From a virus (lineage: Duplodnaviria; Heunggongvirae; Uroviricota; Caudoviricetes): a stretch of 64,000 nt of DNA. The position numbers and the translations under genes are program-made. The notes under the pieces are model-generated. The model saw nothing but the letters and a program-made list of their open reading frames with translations, was not told the origin of the DNA and did no database searches. Location of the stretch: the IMG/VR virus record IMGVR_UViG_2571042390_000001. One strand, written 5' to 3'. This document shows positions 13,728 to 54,767 of this stretch, in pieces (the first letter of the stretch is position 1; each line of letters begins with the position of its first letter).

Positions 13728-13745
13728 TAAATTTCTAACATAGTG
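13728..13745. promoter_or_regulatory. Copy of dispersed operator-like motif (TTTCTAACA core)
   Basis: aaatttctaacatagtg; member of a family of at least 14 intergenic sites. Confidence 0.5.
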
Positions 13746-13827
13746 TATTTATATACACTGTTGATCCTGGTGGATGGGATCGAGTAGGATCGCGGTCACT
13801 GCTCCGGTAGCGACTGCCAAAAAAGCA

Positions 13828-13851
13828 AAAGCCGCTTCTCAGCGGCTTTTT
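13828..13851 (+). terminator. Intrinsic terminator
   Basis: agccgct-tctc-agcggct followed by TTTTT. Confidence 0.65.
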
Positions 13852-13913
13852 GGGTGTATAAATCCACTGCCATAGATTTATACGGTAGATAGATTTTTTC
13901 ACGGAACTATCTG

Positions 13914-14876
13914 GTGAGTATTTTAAATTCAGTTTCAGTAACTTTCAACACTTCTGAGTATAAAAACAACACTGAATACCACAAAAAAATCAAAGGTCAT
14001 CAGTTGAGTTTTTTTGCTCGTCATAGCGGTCTTCTTTCCCCTTCACATAGCGCCATTATTGCCGAGTTCGCCAACCTGGCAGGGTCTACCGATGAATACA
14101 TGATCCGTCGCTCATATGCTGATATGTCCGAGATTACAGGACGCAGTATTTCTACTGTGCGCCGGGCATTTGCTGAAGCGACGAAGTGCGGAATGCTTGT
14201 TAAGCAACATCAGGTAGCGAATAACAATGCCCAGGTGTGTAACGTATATCGGTTTACGACACAATTTCTCCACTTCATTCATGTAGCAATGGAGATAGGG
14301 GGTAAGCAGGGCATCAAATTTGCCAACGCCACAAAACTGGTTAAGCAGTTGATTTCAAAGGTTCGTTATTTTTTTGAAACTGGGAACCCCCTGTTCAAAT
14401 TGAACAAGTCCCCCCATGTTCAAAATGAACAGCCAATAGAAAATAAGAGTCACTCTATAGCCAAAAGAAGAGAAAGATCATGCGCGGTTCAGCCAAAGGC
14501 TTCACCTGCAGATAGTTCTCAAACGGATAACGGGGTACTGGATAAAAAACCAGTAATCAGGGAAGAACATACCAACCACTGCCTGGCGGCGGCAAAAGCG
14601 AGAGCTGCAAAGCGTCGTTCAGACGAGGGGCACGCAAAACGGCAGGCTCTGTATCGTACCGCTGAAAATCTGGCAAAAAAATTTGCATGGATACGTAGTG
14701 CCGCTACCGCAGTGAATAAGCCTAAACAATCCAGTGCCCTAGATTTCTCAATGGATTATTCTGGCTCCCAGGGGTGTGCAACCATTGGTGAAGCCTTTGA
14801 CCTGATGAAACAGCGTGGCTATCGGTCTGAATTTGACCGTGAGGATTGGTCAATCCCTGCGGGATTTAGGGGATGA
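13914..14876 (+). CDS. Hypothetical protein with HTH-like segment; start uncertain
   Basis: 320 aa from GTG 13914; segment ITGRSISTVRRAFAEATKCGML resembles a DNA-binding helix-turn-helix. Confidence 0.45.
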   Translation: MSILNSVSVTFNTSEYKNNTEYHKKIKGHQLSFFARHSGLLSPSHSAIIAEFANLAGSTDEYMIRRSYADMSEITGRSISTVRRAFAEATKCGMLVKQHQVANNNAQVCNVYRFTTQFLHFIHVAMEIGGKQGIKFANATKLVKQLISKVRYFFETGNPLFKLNKSPHVQNEQPIENKSHSIAKRRERSCAVQPKASPADSSQTDNGVLDKKPVIREEHTNHCLAAAKARAAKRRSDEGHAKRQALYRTAENLAKKFAWIRSAATAVNKPKQSSALDFSMDYSGSQGCATIGEAFDLMKQRGYRSEFDREDWSIPAGFRG

Positions 14877-14928
14877 CCTGTGTGTCTACAAAACATCCCA
14901 ATGATCGGAAAATGCTCGGCCGATTATT

Positions 14929-14963
14929 TATGTTAGAAAATTAATTTGCTGTTTCTAAAACGG
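14929..14963. promoter_or_regulatory. Pair of divergent operator-like motifs upstream of the first icd/ant module
   Basis: atgttagaaaattaatttgctgtttctaaaacgg: one TGTTAGAAA and one TTTCTAAAA copy 11 bp apart. Confidence 0.5.
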
Positions 14964-15289
14964 AATGTATGATCTGCATCATCGACTGAAGTCATCCATT
15001 GCTGAAATTTTTAGTTGATCTTCCATGTTTTCAGGCTTATATTCATGCCGTCGTAGCAAATTCTGCGACCGGGTTTGACAGCCTGAATGTTAGTGCGGAC
15101 AACCGCAGATTTCCGATATTGCGGTATTTTTGTGTCCGTAAACCGCGTTACGCCCGAATTATGGTGGGGCGTGATGGGGAGGCTTCGGCCTGCTGGTTTC
15201 ACTAACGCCAGTCTGTCAACCCTGTCACGTCCTGCCACCTGTTTGACAGCGGGTGGCAGGTTGTTAAACCTGTTAGTGAGGCCGTAACT

Positions 15290-24397: not shown

Positions 24398-24658
24398 ATG
24401 CGAAAGAATCGTAGGTTTACGGTCGAAGACCTAAAGGAATATTCCATATCGAAGGGGTATATCCTTGAGTTCCACCGATACAAGAAGGTTTTTACGCTGC
24501 GAAAAGCAGAAAACCCTGCGAACTGGAGCTGGATATACTTTCCTCACACCGATGATAAGTTGGTAGAACTTGTTGATGATTTAACCTATGAAGGTTGGTT
24601 GATCGCAATCGACAAGACAATCAAAGAATTATCCGAACAGGATAAAATAACCCTTTAA
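24398..24658 (+). CDS. Hypothetical protein
   Basis: 86 aa, 2 bp after upstream stop. Confidence 0.5.
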   Translation: MRKNRRFTVEDLKEYSISKGYILEFHRYKKVFTLRKAENPANWSWIYFPHTDDKLVELVDDLTYEGWLIAIDKTIKELSEQDKITL

Positions 24659-24794
24659 AAATAACAGGTTGGGTAAATGCCATGCGATTTACCCTCCTTG
24701 TTGATTAAGGTCACTCTTTACTCTAAAAGCAAATCCGACCTGTTGCATATAGACCATCCTTGAGTAGTATCTCTCTTGTTTTACAAATCTAACG

Positions 24795-25289
24795 TTGTTG
24801 TTATTATTTCGCATATTTACTATCAATGGGTGTGTTAGAAAAATAGCGCGAAAGAGAAGGCGTCGCAGTGAATATTCTGAAACATCCCCACATGCCGCAG
24901 CTCTTAGAGAACTGGAGAAAAACCCAGATCTAATCAAAAGGAACCATGAGCATTACGAGCAGGTTCGCGTCCTGGACTGGATGTATCGCAATATGCGTTA
25001 TGTGTATGAGCATACTCACGCCACTCCAAACGGTGGCCTGCGAGGCATAAGGACGGCAATAAAAATGGTGGCAGAGGGCCAAAAGAAGGGATATCCCGAT
25101 CTTTCTATAGACCTTGCTTGTGGGGGATACCACGGAATGCGCATTGAGATGAAACATGGGAGAAATCGCCTGACTCCCGAACAACTCGTCTGGATGACTC
25201 GCCTCACAGAAGCCGGTTACTACTGCTTTGAGGCGCGCAGTGCCGCTGAAGCCATAAAAGCTATCACGGAGTATGTTTGTCTTGATTAA
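24795..25289 (+). CDS. VRR-NUC domain nuclease-like protein; start codon uncertain
   Basis: Segments EHYEQVRVLDWM, KGYPDLSIDLACGGYHGMRIEMKHG and LTPEQLVWMTRL fit the PD-(D/E)xK VRR-NUC pattern; the operator motif lies inside the annotated 5' end. Confidence 0.55.
   Translation: MLLLFRIFTINGCVRKIARKRRRRSEYSETSPHAAALRELEKNPDLIKRNHEHYEQVRVLDWMYRNMRYVYEHTHATPNGGLRGIRTAIKMVAEGQKKGYPDLSIDLACGGYHGMRIEMKHGRNRLTPEQLVWMTRLTEAGYYCFEARSAAEAIKAITEYVCLD
24831..24846. promoter_or_regulatory. Operator-like motif
   Basis: tgtgttagaaaaatag in an AT-rich stretch upstream of the VRR-NUC domain. Confidence 0.45.
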
Positions 25290-25872: not shown

Positions 25873-25890
25873 ATATGTTAGAAAAATAAT
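25873..25890. promoter_or_regulatory. Operator-like motif
   Basis: atatgttagaaaaataat, 25 bp upstream of the 402-aa gene. Confidence 0.5.
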
Positions 25891-27122: not shown

Positions 27123-27140
27123 TGTGTTAGAAATCTAAAA
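27122..27140. promoter_or_regulatory. Operator-like motif
   Basis: atgtgttagaaatctaaaa, overlapping the stop codon of the 402-aa gene. Confidence 0.45.
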
Positions 27141-27276
27141 TCACAATTCGAATGTATTGATTGTGAAGATAACTTAACATAGAATTTTCCTTGCTGGTGG
27201 GCGGTACCCACGTTTCGCTTGCTGGGCTTGATAGTCACTTATTGGTTATTGTTCGCCCACCAGCATTTAACAAATT

Positions 27277-27296
27277 AAAGTGTTAGAAATGTATAG
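27277..27296. promoter_or_regulatory. Operator-like motif
   Basis: aaagtgttagaaatgtatag. Confidence 0.45.
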
Positions 27297-27872
27297 TAAT
27301 GCAAGAGCACGCTTTGGCACCGTGCAGGCCAAAGTTCAGCAGGTTTAGTGCGGAAAGTGGTTTCAGAGAGAGCACTTTGCGGAGTAAACGACAATACATG
27401 TTGAGCCACGGAAGGTCTTTTTAAGGTGTTCATTGATGATGGTCCGGCAGAGAGTAACGGTACATGCTGCATCTAATCATCAATGCACATCTTCAACATT
27501 AAGGAGGCATAGGGATTTTTGTGGCGGTTACCTTTTGCCCTGAGTCTCCTTAATGTTGCGGTAATGCACCTATGCGGATGTGGCCTTGCATTGTGTCTTG
27601 AAAGAATGGGGTAAGGCCGGGGATATCCCCAGGGGGAGGCACCCCCGCTGCAACGAACAGCCACAGACGGCAGTCGAGTGATGGAAACGTGTAAAGACTT
27701 TAAACCTCGTTACGGCTGGCGTGGCAAACGCGACAACCGAGACAGAGCGGTGACGGGCGGAGAGAGTGCCGCATCAAGAAAGAAGCCGACTTGTGATCCC
27801 TTTCAGCGGGCATTTGAAAGTGAATCCAGCTCAGGCAGTCGGCTTCTTTCTTGTGTGAGATGTAGCGTATTT

Positions 27873-27896
27873 GCCCATCTTCGGGTGGGCTTTTTT
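27873..27896 (+). terminator. Intrinsic terminator inside the ORF-poor region
   Basis: gcccatc-ttcg-ggtgggc followed by TTTTTT; preceded by a 16-bp-stem hairpin at 27767-27846. Confidence 0.55.
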
Positions 27897-28357
27897 AGGG
27901 TTTTCGTCATGGTTAGCGACTTTGCGGCGGTTTAGAAACTGACCATTAAAGTAAATGCAAACGATGATCTGATGATGGTAGCGGCCTAAGAAGCCAGACG
28001 CCACGGGGTATGAGTCGTCCCCCGTCAAAAAAATCGACCGCAGAGTGTCCCCGTCTGTGTATTAGGGAACGGGGAGGCATAACAGGCAAGGGCGCTGGTG
28101 TGATTAACCAGATGAATGAGAAGGGTCAGGTCTTTCTGGTCAGCGCCCTTACCTGTTGCGTCCTTCCCGCGTAACAGCCATTGCTTAATGGCATCCTGGG
28201 AGAACTTCTTGTAACGGGTATATCCCGTCATGCTGAAGGCGCTAATCACGCTGGAAGCCAGGGTTGTGCATCCCCTGTTACCGAATTGCAGCCAGGGCGC
28301 GGTGCGCCGAAAAGCATACGGAGGTGGAAGCCCTCGCCGGAGACGTACCCGGCAAGT

Positions 28358-28432
28358 GATGGTGTAGCTCAGCGGTAGAGCAGTTGGCTGTTAACCAACT
28401 GGTCGGTGGTTCGAATCCACCCACCATCGCCA
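28358..28432 (+). tRNA. tRNA-Asn (anticodon GTT)
   Basis: 75 nt with CCA; acceptor gatggtg/caccatc, T-arm ggtgg-ttcgaat-ccacc, anticodon loop ctGTTaa. Confidence 0.85.
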
Positions 28433-28437
28433 ATTTA

Positions 28438-28524
28438 GGGGAGTTAGTCCGTAGGGGTAGCGGGGTAGACTGTAAATCTACTGTCATTGCGACTCGGGTG
28501 GTTCGACTCCATCACTCCCCACCA
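28438..28524 (+). tRNA. tRNA-Tyr (anticodon GTA), type II with long variable arm
   Basis: 87 nt with CCA; acceptor ggggagt/actcccc, anticodon arm gtaga-ctGTAaa-tctac, variable arm gtcattgcgac, T-loop ttcgact. Confidence 0.7.
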
Positions 28525-28528
28525 AATT

Positions 28529-28604
28529 GCCGGTTTAGCTCAGTTGGTAGAGCAGTCGCTTTGTAAGCGAATGGTCAGCGGTTCGATCCCGTTAACCGGC
28601 ACCA
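28529..28604 (+). tRNA. tRNA-Thr (anticodon TGT)
   Basis: 76 nt with CCA; acceptor gccggtt/aaccggc, anticodon loop ttTGTaa, T-loop ttcgatc. Confidence 0.85.
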
Positions 28605-29058
28605 ACACAACAGGTAAGAGCATTTGTAGAGTTCGACTCTCTACCGTGGGCTTTTTCCCGCGATGCGAGCCATAAATGCTCTTACCGTTGTGATGAAGTG
28701 CAGCTCTTTGAAGCAACCAGAAGATAAGCATCTGGCTTCACAACATAAACCGCAGGAACGACCAATAAACGGTAGTCCGTATGGAGAACACCCCGTTGAG
28801 GAAGAGGTCTGGCCGGAACCGTAACCGGCACTACAACGTTGAGAACACTGGCGTAACGGGGTCATATCCCAATCTACGAATAAATGTTGCGTTGCAGCGT
28901 GACAACCAGTGTTCTCAACATTGTGGTGAATGCGCAGGCTGATGCGCGAAAGACATTGCAGCTATTGCGGAAAAGAGCTGTTCGGCGGGGCAATTAAACG
29001 CCCGTGAGAGTCTGAAATAACCGCAAGCCGGAGATCAGCACCGGTCGCCACAATAACG

Positions 29059-29145
29059 GGAGAGTAGGGAGCATGGTGCTCAAGCGGTCTTGAAAACCGT
29101 CCCATTGCGCAAGCGATGATGGTTCGATTCCATTACTCTCCGCCA
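29059..29145 (+). tRNA. tRNA-Ser (anticodon TGA), type II
   Basis: 87 nt with CCA; acceptor ggagagt/actctcc, anticodon arm gcggt-ctTGAaa-accgt, T-loop ttcgatt. Confidence 0.7.
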
Positions 29146-39761: not shown

Positions 39762-40845
39762 GAGCAATATTTATAAAGATCCGCGCTGGCTGTCGCTGGT
39801 GGAGAAATATAAAGACAATTGGGTTCTGGCAGCAAAAGAATTGTTTGATATTGATTTAAGCCACCAGCAACAACAAATTGTTGAAGCTATACAGCCCAAT
39901 AATGCAAAAGCTACTGTCACCACTCCGCATGGGATCGGACGACCGCAAGTGCTTGCTGTTATTAGTACCCTTTATACGATTATGTATCCTGATTCCCGGA
40001 CAGTAATTGTTTATCCAAAATCAAATGCTTGCAAAAAAGGAATTGTTGCATATGTGTGGCAATGTTGGGAGGCATTACTGAAAAAACAACCTTTTATCAT
40101 TGAGTATTTTAAGGTCGGTGATAGCGGTCTGATGTTCAATGAATTTTGGGGAATGTGCTTTTGTAACTACCGCCTTAACTATGAAGATAGCATTGCAGGT
40201 CACTACGCCGACCATCTGTTATTCATTATTGTGGATTCCGCACATATCAGCGATCGGGCATACAGTATTGTGTGGGCAAGCATGACTAGTGGTGATTCAC
40301 GCATATTGCTCACTTCAATTCCGTCACCAGAGGAAATAGGATTTTTTTATGATTCTCATCATGGGCGTGCTTTAGCTGAAGATAATCCGAGTGGTGCCTA
40401 TAAAGCCATTAAGCTGAGTGCTGAGGATTCACCATTTATTACCCAAGAATATCTTGATCATTTTGCCGAAAGGTATGGCGGGCGAAATAGTGATGACTAC
40501 CGTCGTATGATTCTTGGTGAGTTCCCTGGTATTAGGGAGGCTGTTCTTGAATCAGATATGCCGAAGACAATGCGCTTTTCGATGCCTGATGGTAGTGAAT
40601 GGACAATACCATTACGAGTGATAGCCCGGCATCATGCGCAGCACCACGCCAAAAAACATGGCGTCACGACATTAGAATGGTTGAAATCGCACACCATTCC
40701 ACTCTTCACTGCAGATCACAATGCTATCGTTGAGTGGGCAAAAACAATTCCGTGGGAGAATGTCGCTGAATACGCCCACATGCTAAAACCGCCGAAAGAC
40801 AGGCAAGAAATTAGCTGGCTGACAGCAGAAAAAATCATTGAGTGA
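39751..40845 (+). CDS. Terminase large-subunit paralogue with degenerate ATPase motifs and no nuclease region
   Basis: About 364 aa; aligns with PacB-like N-terminus (DPRW, HQQQQI) but Walker A reads PHGIGRPQ and Walker B IIVDSA; C-terminus unrelated to PacB nuclease region. Confidence 0.6.
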   Translation: MATKSNIYKDPRWLSLVEKYKDNWVLAAKELFDIDLSHQQQQIVEAIQPNNAKATVTTPHGIGRPQVLAVISTLYTIMYPDSRTVIVYPKSNACKKGIVAYVWQCWEALLKKQPFIIEYFKVGDSGLMFNEFWGMCFCNYRLNYEDSIAGHYADHLLFIIVDSAHISDRAYSIVWASMTSGDSRILLTSIPSPEEIGFFYDSHHGRALAEDNPSGAYKAIKLSAEDSPFITQEYLDHFAERYGGRNSDDYRRMILGEFPGIREAVLESDMPKTMRFSMPDGSEWTIPLRVIARHHAQHHAKKHGVTTLEWLKSHTIPLFTADHNAIVEWAKTIPWENVAEYAHMLKPPKDRQEISWLTAEKIIE

Positions 40846-42758: not shown

Positions 42759-43556
42759 TTAATACCGGCATTCATAGCATGAGTATCTCCACTGTTCATG
42801 GTCAAAGCACCAGAATGCTTCCCTGGGCAGATTGTGTTTGTTCATTAGCGCCAGAACTTGCGTAGGCGTATTCGCGGGAATTTCTGGTAATAAAGCCTTC
42901 GCCATTTCATGAACCAACATGGCATCAATGACGCCTAGCGTATGGCCTGCCTTAATCTTTAATGCAGTTTCAAGATAGCTCCTTTCCAGAGTTGTGCTTA
43001 CTCTTGGCTTCGGCACCTCTTGTGGATGAGTATCCAGACGGTTGCCAGATTCATAGGCTACCCGCAGCCAGTGCATGAATGTTTCAGTAGACACACAACC
43101 GCAGTCCAAGTCGATTTTTTCGCGTTGTTGCCCCAGCCATTGCTCAAAATTTAACTTATTGGATGCTTCAAGAGCCTCTTCGTATTGTTTGCGCGAAATT
43201 ATTTCCGTGTATTCCTCGCGATCAAGGTTACTTATCGGAAGCCTGACCTCAAGGCAAAAATTGCGCCCACGCGGGCTTTTCGCTGGATCAGAGCCAAAAG
43301 CAAAGAAACCATATGATGGTTCACAGCAGTCCTCTCTAACCATGCGACAATCGAGCACATCATCAGGCCACCCTCCACGCTTTGGCAGCTCCTGCACCAA
43401 CAAGTCAATCAGCTTTATACTCTCACCGTCTTTGCAGGTTGCTAACGCTATTTGGGCAAGCTCCAATACCTCATCTGCCGTGTATCCAGCGCCGTGTCCA
43501 TACATTTCGATGCGTGCAATAATCTCTGATATGCGAAATTTAGTGATTTTAGTCAT
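42759..43556 (-). CDS. Hypothetical protein
   Basis: About 266 aa from ATG 43556 with RBS aagga; ATGA overlap with upstream gene. Confidence 0.5.
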   Translation of the reverse strand: MTKITKFRISEIIARIEMYGHGAGYTADEVLELAQIALATCKDGESIKLIDLLVQELPKRGGWPDDVLDCRMVREDCCEPSYGFFAFGSDPAKSPRGRNFCLEVRLPISNLDREEYTEIISRKQYEEALEASNKLNFEQWLGQQREKIDLDCGCVSTETFMHWLRVAYESGNRLDTHPQEVPKPRVSTTLERSYLETALKIKAGHTLGVIDAMLVHEMAKALLPEIPANTPTQVLALMNKHNLPREAFWCFDHEQWRYSCYECRY

Positions 43557-43762
43557 AGTTTTATTTCCTTGCATGGTTCGCCTTTACGGCATATAGCTGC
43601 ACGGTCATTTCTTACATTAACCACGGTCACCGTTCCGTCATCGCATTGAATAACGATGAAAGGGTGTTCATTCTCTTTTGTGCAATGTTGCTGTTCCCCT
43701 GCTATAACAGTGAGGGGAATTAATAAAATAATAATTACTGCGAATTTACTAAATGTTGCCAT
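43553..43762 (-). CDS. Small secreted Cys-containing protein
   Basis: 69 aa; signal peptide MATFSKFAVIIILLIPLTVIAG; four Cys in the mature part. Confidence 0.45.
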   Translation of the reverse strand: MATFSKFAVIIILLIPLTVIAGEQQHCTKENEHPFIVIQCDDGTVTVVNVRNDRAAICRKGEPCKEIKL

Positions 43763-43786
43763 AGCAATCTTTCTTTCTGTTTTTCA

Positions 43787-44080
43787 TTATGGTTGAATCC
43801 AGTTATCTTCAATAGCAATGCTCAATCTTTGTAACCATTCTGCTAATTTCAGCATTGCTTCTCTTTCGCTTAAACCACGAGGAAAATCATCAAGCGATAT
43901 TGTTGGCTTGAAGTTTCCCAAATTATCCATTTCAACGGTCAGATTTTGCTCCAGCACGGTATTCCTTACGCGGCTATTGTGCCGAAGCAAATATACTGAA
44001 CGTGATTTATTGGTTTTGTGGTCGAGCTGATATTCGGTAAGTATCATCTGGCTTCCGCCATGATTATTACCGCGCCACAT
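43787..44080 (-). CDS. Hypothetical protein
   Basis: 97 aa. Confidence 0.4.
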   Translation of the reverse strand: MWRGNNHGGSQMILTEYQLDHKTNKSRSVYLLRHNSRVRNTVLEQNLTVEMDNLGNFKPTISLDDFPRGLSEREAMLKLAEWLQRLSIAIEDNWIQP

Positions 44081-44103
44081 AATTACTCCGTGTTAATTGA
44101 AAT

Positions 44104-44406
44104 TTAGCTATTAATCTTCACTTTTATCGCGAACACCTTTACCGGTTTATCACCGAAGTGCGGATGTGTGATTGTCTTGATTTCATATCCACCATACGGA
44201 ACATCAATTCTGCGACTGGAATCGTCGCGCTTCGGATATCCCTTTGTGATAATCAGGCGGTCATACTTACGGTTAACGAGGCGCTTATTCCAGTAGTCAT
44301 TACACAGGCGATACTCTTCCGTTTTATCTCCGCGAATCATGGCATCGAAGTATTCACCTTTGACGGCAAGTTGCAGGTTAGCCATTACCTCACCTCCAGT
44401 CTCCAT
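44104..44406 (-). CDS. ASCH-like domain protein
   Basis: 100 aa; GDKTEEYR fits the ASCH GxKxxExR motif. Confidence 0.45.
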   Translation of the reverse strand: METGGEVMANLQLAVKGEYFDAMIRGDKTEEYRLCNDYWNKRLVNRKYDRLIITKGYPKRDDSSRRIDVPYGGYEIKTITHPHFGDKPVKVFAIKVKINS

Positions 44407-44645
44407 ACCGCCTGACCAATCCGGCTGGCATGGGTATCTTTGGATACTGTTCCGTCTTTAGCCAGCTCCATAAGAATTTTGCGCAAATCTGCCGAGCGCC
44501 ATTCTTCATCAGGAAATTCCTTCTCCATTGCCAACCGCAGATTCCAGGTTGCTATCGTGAATGGATATTCACCGCCGAGAGCTTTCTCTTGTAGGGCAGC
44601 ACGGGAACGCATCACCTGCAAAACCTTCTCTTTTACATCCATCAT
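44385..44645 (-). CDS. Hypothetical protein
   Basis: 86 aa; overlaps neighbours by a few bases. Confidence 0.4.
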   Translation of the reverse strand: MMDVKEKVLQVMRSRAALQEKALGGEYPFTIATWNLRLAMEKEFPDEEWRSADLRKILMELAKDGTVSKDTHASRIGQAVWRLEVR

Positions 44646-45331
44646 TACGCCTCCTTCGGCGGTTCTGGTAGCGGCATCCAGTGGGTTACTTCTTTGAGAT
44701 GCAGGTCTTCGCCATCACCGTCATCCCAAGTGGGATTGCCATCATTAAACCAGTCGCCATATACGCCGACCTGAGTGTTGGGGATGCTTGGTGGGTAGTT
44801 GTTTTTAAAGTCAGCTGCTAACACATAGTATTGTCGCTCTCCCATTTCTGGCATTCGATCACTACAGCTTATCCAACCATCCGGAGTTACCGGAGAGTTG
44901 GTTGACGTTTCCGCAATTTCCCGAAAATTATTGGTTGACGAATTCGCGTTTTTCCGAAAGTTTCCGGCATGAAGCATAGCCGCGCGGCAGGCATTCCACC
45001 CCTTCACATAACCGAACGCCATCAACTGATCACTCATGGCGGGCAGCATTGTGTGGGTCGTACTGATTTCTTCCGGCACTACCGGCGCTGGCGGGGCGAT
45101 GCGTCCAAGCAACTTATTTACCTCTTTCGCCATCGCGTCATATTTATCTAAATGGCGATTAGCTTCTAAGCAGACTCGGCGCATCTGATCTGAGTTAACT
45201 CGTTTAACTGGATCTGCTTCCAGCGATGCCAGCGCAATCCGTGCCAGTTCCATTTGTTCACCACGGGTAAGCCCGTTTTCAAGCGGATTTTTAATGAACA
45301 ATTCAATACGTTCTTTGGTAATAGTGGTCAT
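44645..45331 (-). CDS. Member of a paralogous family (MTTIT...RIALASLEA N-terminus)
   Basis: 228 aa; N-terminus homologous to 46101-46550. Confidence 0.55.
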   Translation of the reverse strand: MTTITKERIELFIKNPLENGLTRGEQMELARIALASLEADPVKRVNSDQMRRVCLEANRHLDKYDAMAKEVNKLLGRIAPPAPVVPEEISTTHTMLPAMSDQLMAFGYVKGWNACRAAMLHAGNFRKNANSSTNNFREIAETSTNSPVTPDGWISCSDRMPEMGERQYYVLAADFKNNYPPSIPNTQVGVYGDWFNDGNPTWDDGDGEDLHLKEVTHWMPLPEPPKEA

Positions 45332-45341
45332 GTGTTACTCC

Positions 45342-45605
45342 TTAACCCGCAGTGCTTTCAACTGATGAGGGGAACAAAATCTTTTCATCAAACCCTGCAT
45401 TCATATCATGAACAGCAACACACCAATCCATCGACGAACGATTATCAAGAGTCTCCATGATTTCATCCATGCGGCGCAGGTCATACAGGTAAATGCTTTT
45501 ATCGCCAATGGTGTAAAAACCAATTTTTTTCGGTGATGGACAGCGATCAAGAACGTCCTGTAATTCGCTCAACCATGCTTGTTCTTTTTTTGTCAAAGTT
45601 GCCAT
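45342..45605 (-). CDS. Hypothetical protein
   Basis: 87 aa. Confidence 0.45.
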   Translation of the reverse strand: MATLTKKEQAWLSELQDVLDRCPSPKKIGFYTIGDKSIYLYDLRRMDEIMETLDNRSSMDWCVAVHDMNAGFDEKILFPSSVESTAG

Positions 45606-45606
45606 A

Positions 45607-46098
45607 TCACTCTCCTTTGATGCGAATGCCAGTGGTACTCATTCTCCTGATTTCCCAGAGCACACGAGGAACACCACCGTTTCCGACCGGATCGCGTTTA
45701 CTCCGCAGGGCGACGCTTGATTCCGCCCAGCTTTTTCTTGGAGGAAGCTCTTTCACACGAACAAAACCAGCTGCGCGGAGAGATGCTCCTGATTCATCTG
45801 CCTGGGTGTACGTAATACAACGTTGATAACCCATAGCCTTTGCTGCCCGCCAGACAGCACCATAAAGCGCGCTGTTAGCGTTGCGTTCTCCTGTGGTACA
45901 TGTGCGATTTACTTCAAGCGTTAATCCATCGTCCAAATGTCGTGCAACAGGTCTACCGGCTGTCGCCACACCTATCAATTCTCCGGCATCATTTCTCAGA
46001 CCAATGCTGAATTTATGCCCCACTGGTGGTTTATTGTGTCGGTGATGTCTGGATATAAACGCCTTCGCAACACGAAGAGTAACCGGTGAAATTTGCAT
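45607..46098 (-). CDS. Hypothetical protein, possibly acetyltransferase-like fold
   Basis: About 164 aa from ATG 46098 preceded by AAAGGAGAG; fold assignment not verified. Confidence 0.45.
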   Translation of the reverse strand: MQISPVTLRVAKAFISRHHRHNKPPVGHKFSIGLRNDAGELIGVATAGRPVARHLDDGLTLEVNRTCTTGERNANSALYGAVWRAAKAMGYQRCITYTQADESGASLRAAGFVRVKELPPRKSWAESSVALRSKRDPVGNGGVPRVLWEIRRMSTTGIRIKGE

Positions 46099-46100
46099 TC

Positions 46101-46550
46101 TCACTCTCCTTTGATGCCAATGTTTACAGACTGGCAAGCCTCTTTGAGCACCCAGTCAACAGCGTCTTTCCATGCTCCGGTTTCGACTGGCGGATTCTCA
46201 CGCTTAACTTGTTCATAGAAACGCACGGCTTTAACCAGTCCTTCTGATGTCACCGGGACTGGCGGGGCAGTGAATAAGGCCTGAATCTCATAGCTCGGCC
46301 TGTCGTTGCAATCCTCTTTTGTCGGTACATATTTCCAGTCACCAACCCACGGCTCCCCCTGAGAGTCCGTAACGCCTTTTTTCACGTAGCGATATCGCCA
46401 CGCGACTGGCTCTGCTTCCAACGATGCCAGTGCGATACGAAACACATTGGCAAGCAGACTGCTTGAAGATTGGTTATCGTGCGCCGGGTCGCTCAGGAAA
46501 CCAGTGATGAATGATTTAATTTCCGCGTTTTCTCTGGTAATAGTGGTCAT
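46101..46550 (-). CDS. Paralogue of 44645-45331
   Basis: 149 aa; MTTITRENAEIK...RIALASLEAEPV. Confidence 0.55.
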   Translation of the reverse strand: MTTITRENAEIKSFITGFLSDPAHDNQSSSSLLANVFRIALASLEAEPVAWRYRYVKKGVTDSQGEPWVGDWKYVPTKEDCNDRPSYEIQALFTAPPVPVTSEGLVKAVRFYEQVKRENPPVETGAWKDAVDWVLKEACQSVNIGIKGE

Positions 46551-46756
46551 TTATTAATCCTCAAAACTTTATGCCCGGGCGCAAAAGCACGTGTTTTGTC
46601 TTTGCTTATTCGCCAGCCATCCTTGCGCGCCTCTTTTGCACAGCCAGCCCATGACGTACCGATATACTCACCGAAGTCTGGCGTTTGATATTTACCATTT
46701 GTACACTGGCGACAATCACAGTAGAGATGCATGGTGTAACTTGCAGCGATAGCCAC
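46547..46756 (-). CDS. Small Cys-rich protein, possible zinc ribbon
   Basis: About 70 aa from GTG after RBS aaggag; CDCRQC ... GC pattern. Confidence 0.35.
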   Translation of the reverse strand: MAIAASYTMHLYCDCRQCTNGKYQTPDFGEYIGTSWAGCAKEARKDGWRISKDKTRAFAPGHKVLRINK

Positions 46757-46757
46757 A

Positions 46758-46946
46758 TCACTCTCCTTTAGTACGCAAGTGGTTTTTCCAGCGGTTTTGC
46801 GCCGCACTGGGCTTTTTGCAACAACTGTTACCCATCACCCCGCAACACCCCGCCAACCTCACTCGTCTGTTACTAATCCTCAACCAGCGCCAGATCCCAA
46901 CACCGTTTCTGCGAGCTAACAGAATTTTTGCTTTACGGTTTTTCAT
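46758..46946 (-). CDS. Possible small basic Cys-rich protein
   Basis: 62 aa; CCGVMGNSCC; weak RBS. Confidence 0.25.
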   Translation of the reverse strand: MKNRKAKILLARRNGVGIWRWLRISNRRVRLAGCCGVMGNSCCKKPSAAQNRWKNHLRTKGE

Positions 46947-46950
46947 CGCT

Positions 46951-47616
46951 TTACTCTTCTTCCTCACGCCCAAGATATGAAAGAGATGTGACTGCTGTTG
47001 CATGGAAACCACAAACCTTGCTAAGTGCGCTTTTAAACTCTTCAAGGTCGGATTGCGATTTGATTCTGAAAGGTGACTGCGCAATCCCGGACATGGTAAT
47101 GCCACTAACATTGCTCACTGCGTTGTAGTGATATACGTGCCTATTAGCTGATTGAGTCACGCGTTCCTGTTGGCTGTTTATATTGGCATCCTGCCCTGTG
47201 GTGGTCTTCTCCAACTCTTCGATACGTTCAGCCATCGCAGCACACTCTTCAAAGTTGCTTGATGCTTTTCTCTCCCATTCGGCGCATTGTTTTCCAAGCT
47301 CTGCAATCAGCTTGTCTTTGCCTTCAAGCTCAACACGCAGCTTCCCTACCGTTAGCGCAATATCCTCGTTCTCCTGGTCGCGAGATTTGATGTATTGCTG
47401 GTTTCTTTCCAGTTCATCCAGTAATGCCAAAGCAACCTTTGGATTAAAGGCAGCAATAAATTCAGCGTTGTTTTTCAGAACGTGTTGCGCAATGGCCTGA
47501 CCACTTAGTCGGACCTTATAACCACGTGCGCCACGGTGTGGTTTATATGAGTCCCAGTCTCCCCACGTTGCTTTCTCTGCCGCCTCACGCAGTGCCTGGT
47601 AATTAATTTTGCTCAC
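46951..47616 (-). CDS. Ead/Ea22-like family protein (paralogue set)
   Basis: 221 aa; N-terminus MSKINYQALREAAEKAT and AAFNPKVALALL shared with 48552-49274. Confidence 0.55.
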   Translation of the reverse strand: MSKINYQALREAAEKATWGDWDSYKPHRGARGYKVRLSGQAIAQHVLKNNAEFIAAFNPKVALALLDELERNQQYIKSRDQENEDIALTVGKLRVELEGKDKLIAELGKQCAEWERKASSNFEECAAMAERIEELEKTTTGQDANINSQQERVTQSANRHVYHYNAVSNVSGITMSGIAQSPFRIKSQSDLEEFKSALSKVCGFHATAVTSLSYLGREEEE

Positions 47617-48148
47617 TGACTGCCTCCTTCTTAATCAGTTTACACAGGTGCTCCACAGCCACAGAGAGTGCATCCACCGCTCGTTTATCCAGACGCGGGG
47701 CCAGAGCAAGCAGTTCATTTATTGCAATCTGAATACCATGCTCCGCCGCCAGCGCCGCGCGATTGCTCTCCAGCTCTGCAATGCGCTGTTTTGCGGTATC
47801 AAGTTCAATCGATAATTTTTCCAACTGCTCTTTATGCTTCTTGTATTCCTGATATGCGTGCCAGGACTGACCTTTGCGCACACTATCAGTAATATCAGTA
47901 ATCTGTTCTGGTGTTAGAGTGGTCAGTGGCTGTGCTGGGAAAATCAGCACTTTCCCGGAATCCCAATCAAAACCAGCGTGAATTGACTGAACCTCAACTG
48001 AGGGTGTTGAACCAATGCTGCCAGGCGAATGAACAACGATCGTTACATCCATATCGCGACGATGGCTGTGGTTGTTGGACAAAATACGATTCAACAAAAT
48101 ACGATTCACCAACTCAGAAAATTTGGAGAATTTCATGCGGAGCCTCAA
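47603..48148 (-). CDS. Hypothetical coiled-coil protein
   Basis: 181 aa; contains an in-frame 15-bp tandem duplication near the 5' end. Confidence 0.45.
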   Translation of the reverse strand: MRLRMKFSKFSELVNRILLNRILSNNHSHRRDMDVTIVVHSPGSIGSTPSVEVQSIHAGFDWDSGKVLIFPAQPLTTLTPEQITDITDSVRKGQSWHAYQEYKKHKEQLEKLSIELDTAKQRIAELESNRAALAAEHGIQIAINELLALAPRLDKRAVDALSVAVEHLCKLIKKEAVSEQN

Positions 48149-48555
48149 TATGCAAAATAGACCGTTGCCACGCCGTTATAGTGATCAAACGATACGGCGT
48201 TTACTTCATAACTGGCCGGGAGCTTCGAGCCAAGAACGTATCCGGGCCACGTTTTCCATGGAATTTCTCTATTCTCACTACCCCCATATACCGTACATCC
48301 AAGTGAACCTACAGCTTCATTAGAACGCGTGCCGCACGTTATGAATCCCAGATTTTGCTTACTGCTCTTAATGGTGATTGAGTGAACGCTGGCTGATGCA
48401 TTAGCAGCACGCTGTGCCTGTTGGTTTGCGATATTCGCAGAGTTCGCAGCAGCTACAGCAGCCGTAGTCGCGGCGGTAGAGGCTACAATAGCTGCTGAAG
48501 CATGCACTTGTTGGATATTCACCAACAATGCCGCGATAAAAATCATCTTCTTCAC
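48145..48555 (-). CDS. Secreted protein
   Basis: 136 aa; signal peptide MKKMIFIAALLVNIQQVHA; Ala/Asn-rich region; two Cys. Confidence 0.5.
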   Translation of the reverse strand: MKKMIFIAALLVNIQQVHASAAIVASTAATTAAVAAANSANIANQQAQRAANASASVHSITIKSSKQNLGFITCGTRSNEAVGSLGCTVYGGSENREIPWKTWPGYVLGSKLPASYEVNAVSFDHYNGVATVYFAY

Positions 48556-49274
48556 TTGTCAGCTCCTTTGCGAATCTGTTCCGCCCATTCTTCAAGGGAT
48601 TTCTCCGCATATTCACCAGACAGGCCATCAATCGGATGCGCTTCATTAGCCAACTCTTCTTTCGCTGACAAAATCATGCGTGTAACGTCGAAAACTTCAC
48701 GCAAAGACTTATTGATAAATCCGTGATTGAACGCAGCAGCAAGACGGCTGGCGGTATAGTTAACTCCCTCGTTGCGTGCTTCCGCACGAATTTCAGCCAG
48801 AAAAGCATCGGTGGCTGGCATATTTCCTGTTGCCTTCATGGCCTCCAAAATAACCAGAACGCCATCTCGCCCAACCTCCTCAGCGATAACCTCGGTGTTG
48901 TCGCCAACAACATCGCAGAATGCCTGAACTGCCTTACGAGCCAGTTCATTCTCCGCCGCCAGCGCCGCGAGATTAGTCTCAAGCTCTGCAATTCGACACA
49001 TAGCATCAATATTTGTGTCCTCCAGGCGCTTAATTTCACCAAGAAGCTCCAGTGCAACCTTTGGGTTGAACGCGGCAACATAACGAGCGTTGTTCTCTGC
49101 ATTTTTCTGTCCATCAAAGCCGGTCCATTTGATAACGTCTTCACATCGTTCATCACCGGGCGTGTGCACCGCATAAGTACCAGTATCCGTCGAAATAAAT
49201 GCGACCCATTCGTCTGGTGTTGCCTTTTCTGCCGCCTCACGCAGTACCTGATAGTCAATTGTCATTCTCGCCAT
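48552..49274 (-). CDS. Ead/Ea22-like family protein
   Basis: 240 aa; DYQVLREAAEKAT, AAFNPKVALELL, ATDAFLAEIRAEARNEG shared with paralogues. Confidence 0.55.
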   Translation of the reverse strand: MARMTIDYQVLREAAEKATPDEWVAFISTDTGTYAVHTPGDERCEDVIKWTGFDGQKNAENNARYVAAFNPKVALELLGEIKRLEDTNIDAMCRIAELETNLAALAAENELARKAVQAFCDVVGDNTEVIAEEVGRDGVLVILEAMKATGNMPATDAFLAEIRAEARNEGVNYTASRLAAAFNHGFINKSLREVFDVTRMILSAKEELANEAHPIDGLSGEYAEKSLEEWAEQIRKGADK

Positions 49275-49906
49275 CCTTCACAGTTGTAATCACGACAGCC
49301 TTCAAAATCATATGGGCTGTACTGCCAGGTTATTTTTCCGCAATGCGGACAATTCCAACGCACCTTCCCGCTTCGCGACTTCTTTCTTCTGTTCTGCTCT
49401 TTCAACCAGTCAGGCATGACCAAACCTGCGCCCTGAACCATTGTTCTGCGGTTAAAGTTATTGATATTGAACGTCCGGCGCTTTGCTGCATCAGCAATGG
49501 AAAATGGCAACCAAACTATTCCTGGTTCGTTTTTGTTGGCGAAGCTAAAGATGGTCGCTTTACTGAAGTCATCTGTTGGCAATCCACCGTGTTGAAGCCA
49601 GTAAACATCGTTGCCGTTCCAGCTACCTTTTTTGTAGGCCACATACTCAGTGCAATCTGACTCAATCAGGCTTTCTGTAGGGATGTACTGGCAATCAACG
49701 TGCCACACAGCCATTGCATCCACACTATCGGCACAAACAGGCTGATCGATATCTCGCCCACAATTCCAGGCTTTTTGGGCTTCTTCCAGCGTGTAAATAT
49801 GAGCGCGATCGATATCAGAACTGTAACCATTGCCGTTATGGCAATGGAATGAGGCGTTATTACCCACAGTTTCACGCAAGCACATCATGTAAAAGCGGTT
49901 ATTCAC
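49262..49906 (-). CDS. Hypothetical protein with C-terminal Cys cluster
   Basis: 214 aa; CPHCGK ... C ... C near the C-terminus. Confidence 0.45.
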   Translation of the reverse strand: MNNRFYMMCLRETVGNNASFHCHNGNGYSSDIDRAHIYTLEEAQKAWNCGRDIDQPVCADSVDAMAVWHVDCQYIPTESLIESDCTEYVAYKKGSWNGNDVYWLQHGGLPTDDFSKATIFSFANKNEPGIVWLPFSIADAAKRRTFNINNFNRRTMVQGAGLVMPDWLKEQNRRKKSRSGKVRWNCPHCGKITWQYSPYDFEGCRDYNCEGWRE

Positions 49907-50192
49907 TGGTTGCCTCCGCTTCCCACGTTTTCAGACTTTCACCACAGAATGGGCAAAATGAAACTCGAATAGGCGATTTAGAAAATTCACCAGACCGCAG
50001 CATGATCAGGTCTTGTGAATGAATTAATTCATGGTTATAGATTTTGTATTTCAGCAGACCTTTCCGCGTCGTGTATTCAGCATCCTGCTCCAGAGATTGT
50101 GCCAACGCCGCGCACGGTTCTATTTTTTTGTCATTAATCAAACAAGTGGAGATTCTGCACTTTGCAGCTCCGTCACCATTACCTTGACTCAT
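49899..50192 (-). CDS. Hypothetical small Cys-containing protein
   Basis: 97 aa; CPFCGES motif. Confidence 0.4.
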   Translation of the reverse strand: MSQGNGDGAAKCRISTCLINDKKIEPCAALAQSLEQDAEYTTRKGLLKYKIYNHELIHSQDLIMLRSGEFSKSPIRVSFCPFCGESLKTWEAEATSE

Positions 50193-50205
50193 TGCATTGC
50201 TCCCA

Positions 50206-51240: not shown

Positions 51241-51275
51241 ATATGTTAGAAAACTAAAATCAATGTTCTAACGTG
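51241..51275. promoter_or_regulatory. Pair of divergent operator-like motifs
   Basis: atatgttagaaaactaaaatcaatgttctaacgtg. Confidence 0.5.
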
Positions 51276-51429
51276 ATTTTGAGTGCGTAAATGATTTGAT
51301 CAGACTTTAAGCTGCCCTCCCTTCACCTGCATTAGCGTCAGATTTCCGCTAAAAACCGCGCCCGTGTCTAGTTTCTATAGCCAGAACCATCAATACGGCT
51401 ATATAAATTCACTTCATGCAGAGCCTGGG

Positions 51430-51741
51430 TCATGCGGCAACCTTCTCACGCAGCCAGATACAAACCGGACCATCTTCAGTGTCATGAATAGAGCCAACAA
51501 ACCAGCCTTCACCCTCTGGTCGCTCCGGTTCCCAGGCGGCAATATCGGGACCAGCTGCGTCCAGATCAAAATCATCTTCATCCATACTGCGAATAGTCCA
51601 CTGAAGATTATTTTCCTTCATCCAGGCGTCAAATTCCTCAGTGGAAATATATTCACGACCTGCGCAAAACTTCTCATACTCCGGATGTGTCCAGCAGCCA
51701 TATTCATCACGTTCTACCGGCATTTCTTTAATTGTGTTCAC
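51430..51741 (-). CDS. Hypothetical acidic protein
   Basis: 103 aa. Confidence 0.45.
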   Translation of the reverse strand: MNTIKEMPVERDEYGCWTHPEYEKFCAGREYISTEEFDAWMKENNLQWTIRSMDEDDFDLDAAGPDIAAWEPERPEGEGWFVGSIHDTEDGPVCIWLREKVAA

Positions 51742-52482: not shown

Positions 52483-52986
52483 TTACCTTCCTTTTCTAAG
52501 CTGTTCGGCGATATCTTCGAGAACGCCATCAGAGAATGAGCGGTCAAAATCGCCTTCCCGCGCATTAGCCATAAACTCAGTAGAGGTAAGAATCATCCGG
52601 GCAATATCCGCGGCGTTCTTCGCAGTATCATCAATAAAACCAGCTTCCCAAGCAGCCAGCATCCTGTTCGCCACAAAGTAAGCGCCCTCCTTGCGTGCTT
52701 CAGTCTTCACTTCATCCAGGAAAGTGTCGGTCGCAGGAGTGGTTTTTTGTGGTGATAGGGCGAGACGAATTGTTTCGAGAGCTGGATCTATTTCCACTGT
52801 TGGCACCTTGATAAAGCCAAGCTGCACGCCATTCATAATGAACGTGCGGCGATCCTCACATATCGCATTCAGTCTCGCATTCTCCGCCGCCAGCGCAGCA
52901 CACGCTTTCTCAAGTCGGGAAATTTCCGTTACATACTCAGCGTTACGCTCTGCCAGTTGTGCTGGCGTTAAACCTTCAGACTTCAT
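52483..52986 (-). CDS. Ead/Ea22-like family protein
   Basis: 167 aa; TDTFLDEVKTEARKEGAYFVANRMLAAWEAGF shared with paralogues. Confidence 0.5.
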   Translation of the reverse strand: MKSEGLTPAQLAERNAEYVTEISRLEKACAALAAENARLNAICEDRRTFIMNGVQLGFIKVPTVEIDPALETIRLALSPQKTTPATDTFLDEVKTEARKEGAYFVANRMLAAWEAGFIDDTAKNAADIARMILTSTEFMANAREGDFDRSFSDGVLEDIAEQLRKGR

Positions 52987-53293
52987 GTACTCTCCTTTCG
53001 AAATAAACGTACTGATTAATCATGCCCAGGGGCATTTCGAGTTTTTCCGCGATCTCACGGCGGGGAACACCACACTGATGAAGCTGCCGCGCCAGTTCTA
53101 TATCGCTCTGCCGGAATTTGGCTGACGGATGAAAGTCTCCTTTCAGAATCATGCTGATCCCCAACTCCCGCGCTTTAGTCCTGACGGCATCACCGGTACG
53201 ACCGATCAGCTTCCCAATACTCTCGACCGTCATAGTTCCGGCGCACTGGCGGAGTATCATGATTTCTGCCCTTCCCCATCCCCGCCAGCTCAC
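52976..53293 (-). CDS. Small DNA-binding-like protein with two HTH-like segments
   Basis: 105 aa; SIGKLIGRTGDAVRTKAREL and GVPRREIAEKLEM. Confidence 0.4.
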   Translation of the reverse strand: MSWRGWGRAEIMILRQCAGTMTVESIGKLIGRTGDAVRTKARELGISMILKGDFHPSAKFRQSDIELARQLHQCGVPRREIAEKLEMPLGMINQYVYFERRVHEV

Positions 53294-53928
53294 GCAGAAC
53301 TCCTTCTAACCAAAAGAACGCCATCTTCAGAAACAACGTTGCAGGACTTCAGGTAATTCATTGCCTCTTTCGGTAATGGATTCTTTGGATCGGCGTTTGC
53401 CAGGGATTTCGATAACCTCATGATAAATTTGATCATTACCTTCTGGCGGAGCTTGTGCTCATGAGATAAAGACAGGTAATAGGAAATGGTATGGGCTAAA
53501 CGCTCACGAAGCTGTTCTGTGCCGTGATATACAGCAGCGATATCACGCAGTGCATTGACCAGTTCCCGGTAAATATGCGGAGCAACCTGGCATTCAATGT
53601 TGGTTGGTGACTCATAAATTACAGTCAGCCCCAGCTTTTCAGCCAGCGCGTGCTCTGCGCGAGCACCAACCGATTCTTCCCATCGATTGAGCAAGTAGAT
53701 CGCATCAGCAGAACGCACCATTGCCAGGCAAATATCCATGTATTCACTCTGACAAAGGCCACCAGGTAACATAGCTGGATTCAGAACGATATGCCCTTCA
53801 GCCATCAACTCGCTCGCTTTCGCATTAAACGCCGCACGGTTGTAATCTGGATAACCAGTCATCGGCCCCGCGATGTAAATTTTCAAAACACGTTTCACCA
53901 TCAAAATTTCCCCAGAATCGTGACGCAA
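53290..53928 (-). CDS. Protein with N-terminal nucleoside 2-deoxyribosyltransferase-like (DUF4406-like) domain
   Basis: 212 aa; LKIYIAGPMTGYPDYNRAAF and AEHALAEKLGLTV; first gene after the operator at about 54100. Confidence 0.4.
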   Translation of the reverse strand: MRHDSGEILMVKRVLKIYIAGPMTGYPDYNRAAFNAKASELMAEGHIVLNPAMLPGGLCQSEYMDICLAMVRSADAIYLLNRWEESVGARAEHALAEKLGLTVIYESPTNIECQVAPHIYRELVNALRDIAAVYHGTEQLRERLAHTISYYLSLSHEHKLRQKVMIKFIMRLSKSLANADPKNPLPKEAMNYLKSCNVVSEDGVLLVRRSSA

Positions 53929-54093
53929 AACATAAGCACTGCGAAAAGCTCAATACCAAGCTCAAGTAGCGCCAACGCCCCGAAAAACAACACATAGAAC
54001 AGGCCAATCTCATTCACAGATGGCTGGTGGATCGCACTTAAAGCTATAAGCATCATGTCCTCCAAACAGTTATCAGGAATGATATTAATGTTT

Positions 54094-54112
54094 TGTGTTA
54101 GAAAATCAATTT
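54094..54112. promoter_or_regulatory. Operator-like motif between divergent operons
   Basis: tgtgttagaaaatcaatt. Confidence 0.5.
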
Positions 54113-54173
54113 TGAATATCTAACCATTTTGATCAATCATAGAAAAATCGTTGAAAAGTAAGAGACTGCCATC

Positions 54174-54752
54174 ATGCAGAAACAGAGTTATTGGGAGAAA
54201 CAGAGACAAAAAGCCATGCAAAAATTGGCTGACCCGGCCTGGCGAGAGGAACAAAGGGCAAAGCGCCTTCAACAAGCTCAACGCCAGCAGCAGCGAGCGA
54301 GAGAAAAAGCCGCATCGCCTGAATATCGGCAAAAGAAAATTGAAAAAGCAAAGCAATATGAACAGCGGAGAAAAGATAAAGCTGTATCCGCTCCGTCCAA
54401 AAAAACACGCACGTCACGCGGCCTGAAAGGCAGATCACTCACAGCCGATGAACGCCGGATACAGACCGCTATCGGTGCTCTCCCCTGCATTGCCTGCCAT
54501 ATTCACGGGCAACATAGCCCAGTGGTATCCCTGCACCATATCTTCGGGAGAACGGCAGAGAACGCGCATAAATATGTCCTCCCTTTGTGTAAATGGCACC
54601 ACCAGTACGCAGCGCCAGCCGAGGTCAGAGAACAATATCCCTGGCTGGTCCCTGTTCATGCTGACGGAAAAATAGGCGGAAAAGCAGATTTCATGCGGCA
54701 CAATGCCGATGAAATGACGTTGTATCAGATGGCGATTGAGTTGATAAATTAG
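54174..54752 (+). CDS. ref: Ref-like HNH endonuclease (recombination enhancement function)
   Basis: 192 aa; basic N-terminal region and HNH-type core LPCIACHIHGQHSPVVSLHHIFGRTAENAHKYVLPLCKWHH. Confidence 0.75.
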   Translation: MQKQSYWEKQRQKAMQKLADPAWREEQRAKRLQQAQRQQQRAREKAASPEYRQKKIEKAKQYEQRRKDKAVSAPSKKTRTSRGLKGRSLTADERRIQTAIGALPCIACHIHGQHSPVVSLHHIFGRTAENAHKYVLPLCKWHHQYAAPAEVREQYPWLVPVHADGKIGGKADFMRHNADEMTLYQMAIELIN

Positions 54753-54767
54753 TTTTCTAACATTTTA
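54750..54767. promoter_or_regulatory. Operator-like motif upstream of the second icd/ant module
   Basis: ttagttttctaacatttt. Confidence 0.5.

Follow-up and report, generated by a model that had tools for sequence, protein, structure and literature searches.

A recurrent asymmetric 17-nucleotide motif as the putative operator of the D6-type C1 repressor in a plasmid prophage distantly related to P1

The operators of the C1 repressor of phage P1 (Op2a ... Op99) are asymmetric sites of 17 base pairs (bp), single as well as paired, that are dispersed over the genome, on either strand, at the start of early and lytic transcription units; their consensus is ATTGCTCTAATAAATTT and 22 sites occur per P1 genome (PMC8546580). 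The experimentally defined C1 operators in the P1 record stand before ref, mat, ssb, c4, kilA-repL, rlf, dmt and the tRNA-ban operon, and further ones are recorded at gene 26/pmgL, at the pmgM/pmgN boundary and at pmgR, pmgT, lpa and c1. P1 C1 is reported to bind as a monomer. This text describes a comparable set of sites in a 64,000-nucleotide (nt) stretch of a Caudoviricetes genome, IMG/VR record IMGVR_UViG_2571042390_000001 (hereafter the window, meaning this whole stretch), in which copies of a short motif are scattered among the genes as candidate operators of a repressor of 345 amino acids (aa), the product of its c1 gene. An earlier note, made from the letters of the window alone, had proposed a P1-like design of scattered operators with a sequence of their own, and the P1 operator that it gave for comparison agrees with the published consensus.

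Judged by sequence comparison, the window is a mosaic relative of phage D6, which is itself a distant relative of P1. The 10-kb stretch around c1 is 98–99% identical to Escherichia phage D6 (immC fragment AY753669; complete genome MF356679), about a hundred plasmids of E. coli, Salmonella and Shigella in PLSDB match most of it, and 146 PLSDB plasmids encode most of a D6-type C1. Over most shared genes the window shows 98–99% identity to D6. When the D6 proteins are mapped onto the window, most genes prove 95–100% identical and some segments are replaced. The window differs from D6 in the absence of tciA and tciB, in the reduction of ppp to two short remnants (51303–51433) adjoining the pdcB operator, in the replacement of the orf100-pmgU segment (42759–50200) by unrelated small genes and in an extra pacB-like open reading frame (ORF) at 39460–40845, 38% identical to the terminase PacB. 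The D6 records name P1 counterparts for most genes, and they (AY753669, MF356679) annotate the rox and cix sites and no operators. As in P1, a single repressor gene adjoins the recombinase with its lox-type site and the pac genes.

The exact core of the motif, TTTCTAACA, occurs 11 times on the two strands of the window against 0.64 copies expected, and none of 100 dinucleotide shuffles reached this number, which bears out the enrichment over shuffled sequence that had been anticipated. The 14-base consensus of the earlier note, with up to two mismatches allowed, finds 12 matches (2.4 expected) and adds a site before lpa with the variant core TTTCTAATA, which gives 12 strong copies in all, 11 with TTTCTAACA and one with the variant. 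That consensus does recur, but the motif is actually longer: the aligned copies form an asymmetric 17-mer, (A/T)TTA(G/A)(T/A)TTTCTAACA(T/C)A, and the position matrix derived from the sites reads ATTAATTTTCTAACA(C/T)A. Positions 3 (a T), 7–13 and 15 are invariant, and a nearly invariant TTA block lies upstream of the core. The earlier list of at least 14 copies also held second copies at 14951 (TTTCTAAAA, 8/9 core bases matched) and 51264 (GTTCTAACG, 7/9 matched), which do exist in degenerate form. Two partner sites, 54111–54127 and 31069–31085, had been missed, and all the coordinates given were correct to within 1–4 nt. An unbiased ranking of all 9-mers by over-representation in the window puts the motif second, behind Chi.

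The motif had been described as intergenic, and a comparison of non-coding with coding DNA leaves that description intact. With the D6 gene map carried over to the window, all 12 strong sites, 5 on the plus and 7 on the minus strand, are non-coding, with a single overlap of 5 nt with the ref stop codon; given a coding fraction of 0.855, random placement would put all of them outside coding sequence with P ~9e-11. The non-coding DNA has a GC content of 0.47 (0.477 for the whole window), and a control with non-coding composition predicts 0.11 copies of the core versus the 11 observed, with a maximum of 2 in 1000 simulations. The sequences that flank the different copies are unrelated to each other. 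The orientation of the motif relative to the downstream gene varies, c1 being preceded by a site that reads TGTTAGAAA and pdcB by one that reads TTTCTAACA, which fits a repressor site and not a directional promoter element.

The places of the sites recall those of the annotated P1 C1 operators, as the proposal of a P1-like design implied. About nine sites of the window are positional counterparts of P1 C1 operators, at repL, c4-icd-ant, lpa, ref, the pmgR/pmgS region, the pmgM region, the tRNA operon and c1; those at genes for lytic regulators and replication (31086, 13726, 14929, 54748 and 54094) were matched to protein_bind features of the P1 record. Like P1, the D6 type has some 12–17 asymmetric 17-bp sites that are spread over the genome, on either strand, at the start of early and lytic units, and single and paired sites both occur. 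The sequence is a different one, and no match to the P1-type operator with three or fewer mismatches is present in the window.

The ORF of 345 aa that had been singled out as the repressor gene is indeed c1 of D6, and Pfam family PF27008 (Phage_P7_repressor_C1) is on record for its protein cluster and for the homologues. BLASTP aligns D6 C1 with P1 C1 at 21% identity over 240 aa (E 2e-8). The NCBIfam model phage_rep_C1 matches D6 C1 with E 9e-6 and 25 bits against an equivalog cut-off of 500, which makes the D6 protein a remote homologue and not an equivalog. The P1 protein is shorter (283 aa), whereas D6 C1 has an extra C-terminal helical region of ~60 aa. The site just upstream of c1 is conserved in six relatives; S. 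Typhi pK91 carries only a remnant of the element and was used just for this region. The site lies at the same position in relatives with C1 at 90, 80, 70, 51 and 44% identity to that of D6; all 17 positions of 35519–35535 are kept where C1 is 90% and 80% identical and 15 of the 17 where it is 70% identical, and the core is the same at 51 and 44%.

Conservation of the other sites was assessed in orthologous intergenic regions of three D6-like plasmids, with C1 90, 80 and 70% identical, by comparison of core and flanks. In the relative with C1 at 80% the 9-base core is identical at 90 of 90 positions and the flanks at 80% (P 2e-9), and at 70% the figures are 70 of 72 positions for the core and 77% for the flanks (P 1e-6). 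The motif has also been followed beyond this range, as C1 variants are found at ~90, 80, 70, 51, 44 and 30% identity to D6 C1. The core TTTCTAACA is present 11 times in the window, 13 times in the Shigella relative (C1 70%), 6 and 4 times in elements with C1 at 51% and 44%, once in a Citrobacter plasmid (C1 29%) and not at all in a Leclercia plasmid (C1 30%) or in P1 (C1 21%). A second word, ATTCTAAGG, occurs 4 times in the Leclercia and 6 times in the Citrobacter plasmid, and a third, TGCTCTAAT, 14 times in P1 and once in the Shigella relative, both being absent from the other elements of this series. In the Leclercia and Citrobacter plasmids the places of ATTCTAAGG correspond to those of the motif in the window and include the region upstream of c1 and the DNA that follows the recombinase gene and pmgS, and in the Leclercia plasmid a site of this type stands at the place that matches 36929 of the window, after dre. 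In the 27 kb examined of a Pantoea plasmid (C1 28%) no word stood out as enriched.

All three operator types have TCTAA in common and differ on both sides of it; aligned on these letters they read TTGC-TCTAA-TA in P1, tTTT-TCTAA-CA in the D6 type and AT-TCTAA-GG in the Leclercia/Citrobacter type, a pattern to be expected of sites that homologous repressors read. For C1 proteins of the D6 group the operator core, TTTTCTAACA, stays the same from 100% down to 44% identity, and divergence of C1 does not seem to change operator specificity there. The distinct immunity specificity suggested in the earlier note holds with respect to P1; among D6-type elements with this constant core, divergence of C1 is not in itself a sign of a new specificity, and differences in immunity may lie elsewhere.

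Some of the sites are composite. At three strong sites an inverted core-like sequence is found at an identical offset of 21 nt, as a second 17-mer that abuts the first at its 5' end; the position of such a partner scores at least 0 bits at 3 of the 12 sites versus a background of 0.0008 (P 9e-8). Composite sites, consisting of a strong 17-mer and a weak one on the opposite strand, occur in at least three places (lpa, pdcB and ref/orf88) and possibly in a fourth, c4 module 1, the partner of which matches the core at 8/9 positions and has a matrix score of just -5.6. The complete D6 genome (91 kb) carries the sites of the window as well, with 17 motif hits of 14 bits or more, and the same geometry is found there at an abutting pair upstream of hrdC-dmt (D6 64114–64147) that falls outside the window and is the counterpart of P1 Odmt. 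The two members of a D6-type pair meet at their 5' ends and together span 34 bp, whereas those of a P1 pair share 6 bp at their 3' ends and span 28 bp. An inverted sequence containing TCTAA lies just upstream of the lpa operator in both phages (P1 39894–39903, GTTAGATAAA; window 31069–31085, CATTAGATA), and there are hints that the paired arrangement at lpa predates the split between P1 and D6.

Relative to promoters the sites are variously placed. When promoters are scored leniently, the motif fills the spacer of a promoter-like sequence at pdcB (TTGATT-17-TATTTT, occupied by the strong site), overlaps the -35 hexamer at orf88, abuts the -35 hexamer at c4 module 1, abuts the -10 hexamer at pmgS and falls just downstream of the start at pmgM, where it lies 24 nt downstream of TTTACA-16-TATTAT; a weak extra candidate at 24777–24793 overlaps the -35 hexamer of this last sequence. 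The two operators before the tRNA genes flank a promoter-like TTGATT-17-TAGAAT (27157–27185, plus strand).

On these grounds the motif is proposed to be the operator of the D6-type C1 repressor, with a probability of about 0.8. By analogy with P1 we infer both that C1 is the binder and that binding represses. In the plasmid prophage C1 would bind asymmetric 17-bp sites, probably as a monomer, in or beside the promoters of early and lytic units, namely those of repL, both c4-icd-antirepressor modules, lpa, ref, pmgM and pmgS, as well as those of the tRNA, dut, pdcB and orf88 operons. Bound sites would block RNA polymerase, and one protein would in this manner silence a regulon scattered over the genome; binding at 35519–35535, next to its own gene, would provide autoregulation, and composite sites may let two C1 molecules bind side by side. 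By sequence comparison the design is that of the P1 immC system, and the window holds a remote relative of it with a different operator and a different pair geometry.

Several observations weigh against this assignment or against its simplest form. C1 is tied to the motif by analogy and co-variation, and it is not the only regulator that differs from clade to clade. C1 has no classical DNA-binding domain that a Pfam scan or a comparison with PDB sequences would recognise. A strict scan with the sigma-70 consensus finds few promoter-like sites next to the motif, no commoner in the motif regions than in shuffled sequence, and the lenient promoter calls given above are low-confidence predictions, for which reason overlap with a promoter is not claimed for every site. 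Two placements are odd for simple occlusion, that of 27279–27295, ~95 nt downstream of the nearest predicted promoter, and that of 13726–13742, which is separated from repL by a strong hairpin (13827–13850).

That the motif serves another regulator, with C1 acting elsewhere, is unlikely. Such a regulator might be the small DNA-binding protein of the orf88 operon (52976–53293), whose ORF matches a PHROG family of transcriptional regulators, a Rha-type antirepressor or a host protein, and many proteins besides C1 differ between the D6 and the Leclercia/Citrobacter clades. However, the sites share their places with experimentally defined P1 C1 operators, including the one directly upstream of c1, the three motif types share the TCTAA of the P1 operator, as homologous binders would lead one to expect, and the 9-mer scan reveals no other over-represented non-coding word in the window that could serve C1. 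We consider it very improbable that the motif is instead a promoter element, such as an unusual -10 or extended -10 sequence (TATGTT / TGTTAGAAA), or a site bound by a phage activator, marking early promoters. Its reverse strand, T(A/G)TGTTAGAAA, does contain weakly -10-like hexamers and the sites do stand at the heads of transcription units, yet both orientations occur before genes of the same direction, half of the sites read TGTGTT and are without the essential A of a -10 hexamer, some lie in promoter spacers or downstream of the -10 hexamer, and the late-promoter box of P1 is a different sequence. This box (AAGTGACTT) had also been considered as the identity of the motif and was rejected for the same difference. 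Finally, although the motif is short and AT-rich, an origin of the copies as chance words in AT-rich spacers or as remnants of a repeated mobile sequence can be given next to no credence and is ruled out by the shuffles, by the control on non-coding DNA (which is not AT-rich), by the unrelated flanks and by a core kept in relatives far above flank level.

The sites proposed for C1 are collected in Table 1. The earlier gene assignments at the sites (both c4/icd/ant modules, ref, c1, lpa, pmgM as the VRR-NUC gene, pmgS as the gene of 402 aa and the minus-strand operon from orf88) agree with the map transferred from D6.

Table 1. Putative C1 operators in the window and the gene of the proposed binder
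Feature	Position	Strand	Location and remarks
Putative operator	13726–13742	+	172 nt upstream of repL (lytic replication); counterpart of P1 OrepL/Op53
Putative operator pair	14929–14962	both	Head of immunity module 1 (a1b1 targets, C4 RNA, icd, antirepressor); strong 14929–14945 (-), degenerate abutting partner 14946–14962 (+); counterpart of P1 Oc4/Op51
Putative operator	24831–24847	-	5' region of pmgM (VRR-NUC)
Putative operator	25874–25890	-	24 nt upstream of pmgS (402 aa); counterpart of P1 OpmgR/Op86 region
Putative operators, two	27123–27139 and 27279–27295	-	Head of rightward tRNA unit
Putative operator pair	31069–31102	both	77 nt upstream of lpa (late-promoter activator); 31086–31102 (+) with variant core TTTCTAATA, weak abutting partner 31069–31085 (-); counterpart of P1 Olpa/Op94
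c1, 345-aa D6-type C1, proposed motif binder	34468–35505	-	100% identical to D6 c1 product
Putative operator TTTAGTTTTCTAACATA	35519–35535	+	14 nt upstream of c1 start codon
Putative operator	36929–36945	+	Directly after dre stop codon, 57 nt upstream of orf117-orf116-dut operon
Putative operator pair	51242–51275	both	41 nt upstream of pdcB (DUF968); strong 51242–51258 (-), partner 51259–51275 (+)
Putative operator pair	54094–54127	both	Divergent orf88/ref control region; strong 54094–54110 (-), partner 54111–54127 (+); counterpart of P1 Oref/Op2a
Putative operator	54748–54764	+	Head of immunity module 2 (orf86, orf85, isrK-like RNA, second C4 RNA, icd2, antirepressor 2)
Weak candidate site ATTGTTTTTGTAACATA	58143–58159	-	Upstream of mat; possible counterpart of P1 Omat; doubtful

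The surroundings of several sites deserve comment. The hairpin between the repL operator and the start of repL is GC-rich (AAAAGCCGCTTCTCAGCGGCTTTT), has runs of A and T on either side and could act as a terminator for transcription from both sides or attenuate the expression of repL. At pmgM the D6 annotation places the start at a TTG codon (24795) inside the promoter-like sequence 24780–24807, upstream of the operator, and annotations of relatives by the Prokaryotic Genome Annotation Pipeline (PGAP) give shorter products (window region 24795–24981); the start annotated in D6 is probably too far upstream. The rightward unit that follows the operators 27123 and 27279 comprises five tRNA genes, orf6 and orf5, and these operators are comparable to P1 Oban/Op72, which controls the tRNA-tci-ban operon. 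The tRNA genes of the window, all on the plus strand (28358–29650), are those for Asn, Tyr, Thr, Ser-UGA and Met/Ile2-CAU, of which the D6 record annotates three (Ser, Thr and Asn), and ~1 kb of apparently non-coding DNA (27300–28350) lies between the operators and the first of them. The lpa site has the canonical TTTCTAACA in the Shigella relative. The late-promoter box of P1 has its sole perfect match in the window (AAGTGACTTTCATTAATCT) at 59245–59263 on the minus strand, with few other matches, so that D6-type phages may use a different late-promoter box from P1. The mat candidate scores 11–17 bits, at a random expectation of 1.8 sites per window with 10 bits or more, and its core is not conserved in the relatives compared.

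Two c4/icd/antirepressor modules are present in the window versus one in P1. Both of these immunity-I-like modules (15037–15242 and 55299–55509) are followed by icd and a Rha-type antirepressor, and Rfam models locate C4 antisense RNAs at 15157–15242 and 55422–55509; the c4-a1b1 target element (15037–15089) is found in module 1 only and an isrK-like RNA (55299–55377) in module 2 only. Of the other immC-related functions of P1, an 86-aa ORF (24398–24658) at the position of lxc, after darB-ulx, gives no alignment to P1 Lxc (82 aa), and no ORF of the size of Coi is found upstream of c1; very diverged analogues of Lxc and Coi are possible. The 86-aa ORF belongs to a PHROG family without known function, and a D6-like plasmid without Lxc has been reported independently (PMC6799933). 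Chi (GCTGGTGG) is the top over-represented 8-mer in the window, with 38 copies versus 4.9 expected (26 plus, 12 minus), and it is also the most over-represented in all related plasmids examined, with 14 to 50 copies per locus where counted.

A structural comparison bears on how C1 proteins might read such sites; to our knowledge no structure of this repressor family has been solved. A Foldseek search with the modelled N-terminal region of C1 returned four Tus-Ter structures as the only significant matches in the PDB (E 6e-8 to 7e-7), the next match having E 0.075; the TM-scores between C1 and Tus are low (0.28–0.38) and the C1 model is of moderate confidence, with a predicted local distance difference test (pLDDT) of 74–81. 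Tus acts as a monomer on an asymmetric site of ~21 bp. Comparison of the C1 and Tus (PF05472) profiles with hhalign gave a probability of 0.3%, both profiles being shallow and the Tus members all at least 81% identical, and Tus was not matched by C1 in an hmmsearch of PDB sequences or in the Pfam scan. Tus arrests replication forks, in contrast to the transcriptional repression proposed for C1. It is a tentative and rather doubtful idea, drawn from the model, that C1 proteins of the P1 and D6 types share a fold, and perhaps ancestry, with Tus. If they did, a monomer would read the asymmetric site through beta strands with the family-invariant residues R41, R157, R159 and H186, the conserved part of the protein would recognise TCTAA, and the clade-specific 3' flanks (TA, CA and GG) would set specificity. 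The bottom strand of the operator at 35519–35535, TATGTTAGAAAACTAAA, shares TATGTT and CTAAA blocks with TerB, GTATGTTGTAACTAAAG, at a spacer 2 nt longer; TerB upstream of E. coli tus (1226–1248 of the locus sequence) reads AATAAGTATGTTGTAACTAAAGT. This resemblance in sequence may be due to chance. Should the kinship with Tus be true, the resemblance (TATGTT...CTAAA) would not be chance and Tus could descend from the repressor of a phage-plasmid.

That D6 has sites of the C1 type is what a specialist would expect. A full-text literature search, with the primary D6 genome paper outside its reach, turned up no description of D6 operators or of the motif in this context. The sequence of the D6-type operator, the list of its sites, the pattern of one core common to three clades and the persistence of the D6-type core as far as 44% C1 identity appear to be unannotated. 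Plasmid prophages of the D6 type are frequent in E. coli, Salmonella and Shigella, and in the wider P1/D6 group resistance genes are found on some of the elements. Knowledge of the operator sequence would point to the set of genes kept silent in the prophage and would help to predict which elements are mutually immune; differences in immunity within the D6 group are probably to be sought elsewhere, for instance in the two c4/antirepressor modules. The repressor and its operator may serve as defined parts without cross-reaction with P1, beside the Dre/rox recombinase already in use, and the three operator types with one core would represent natural specificity swaps from which to learn how the C1 family reads DNA.

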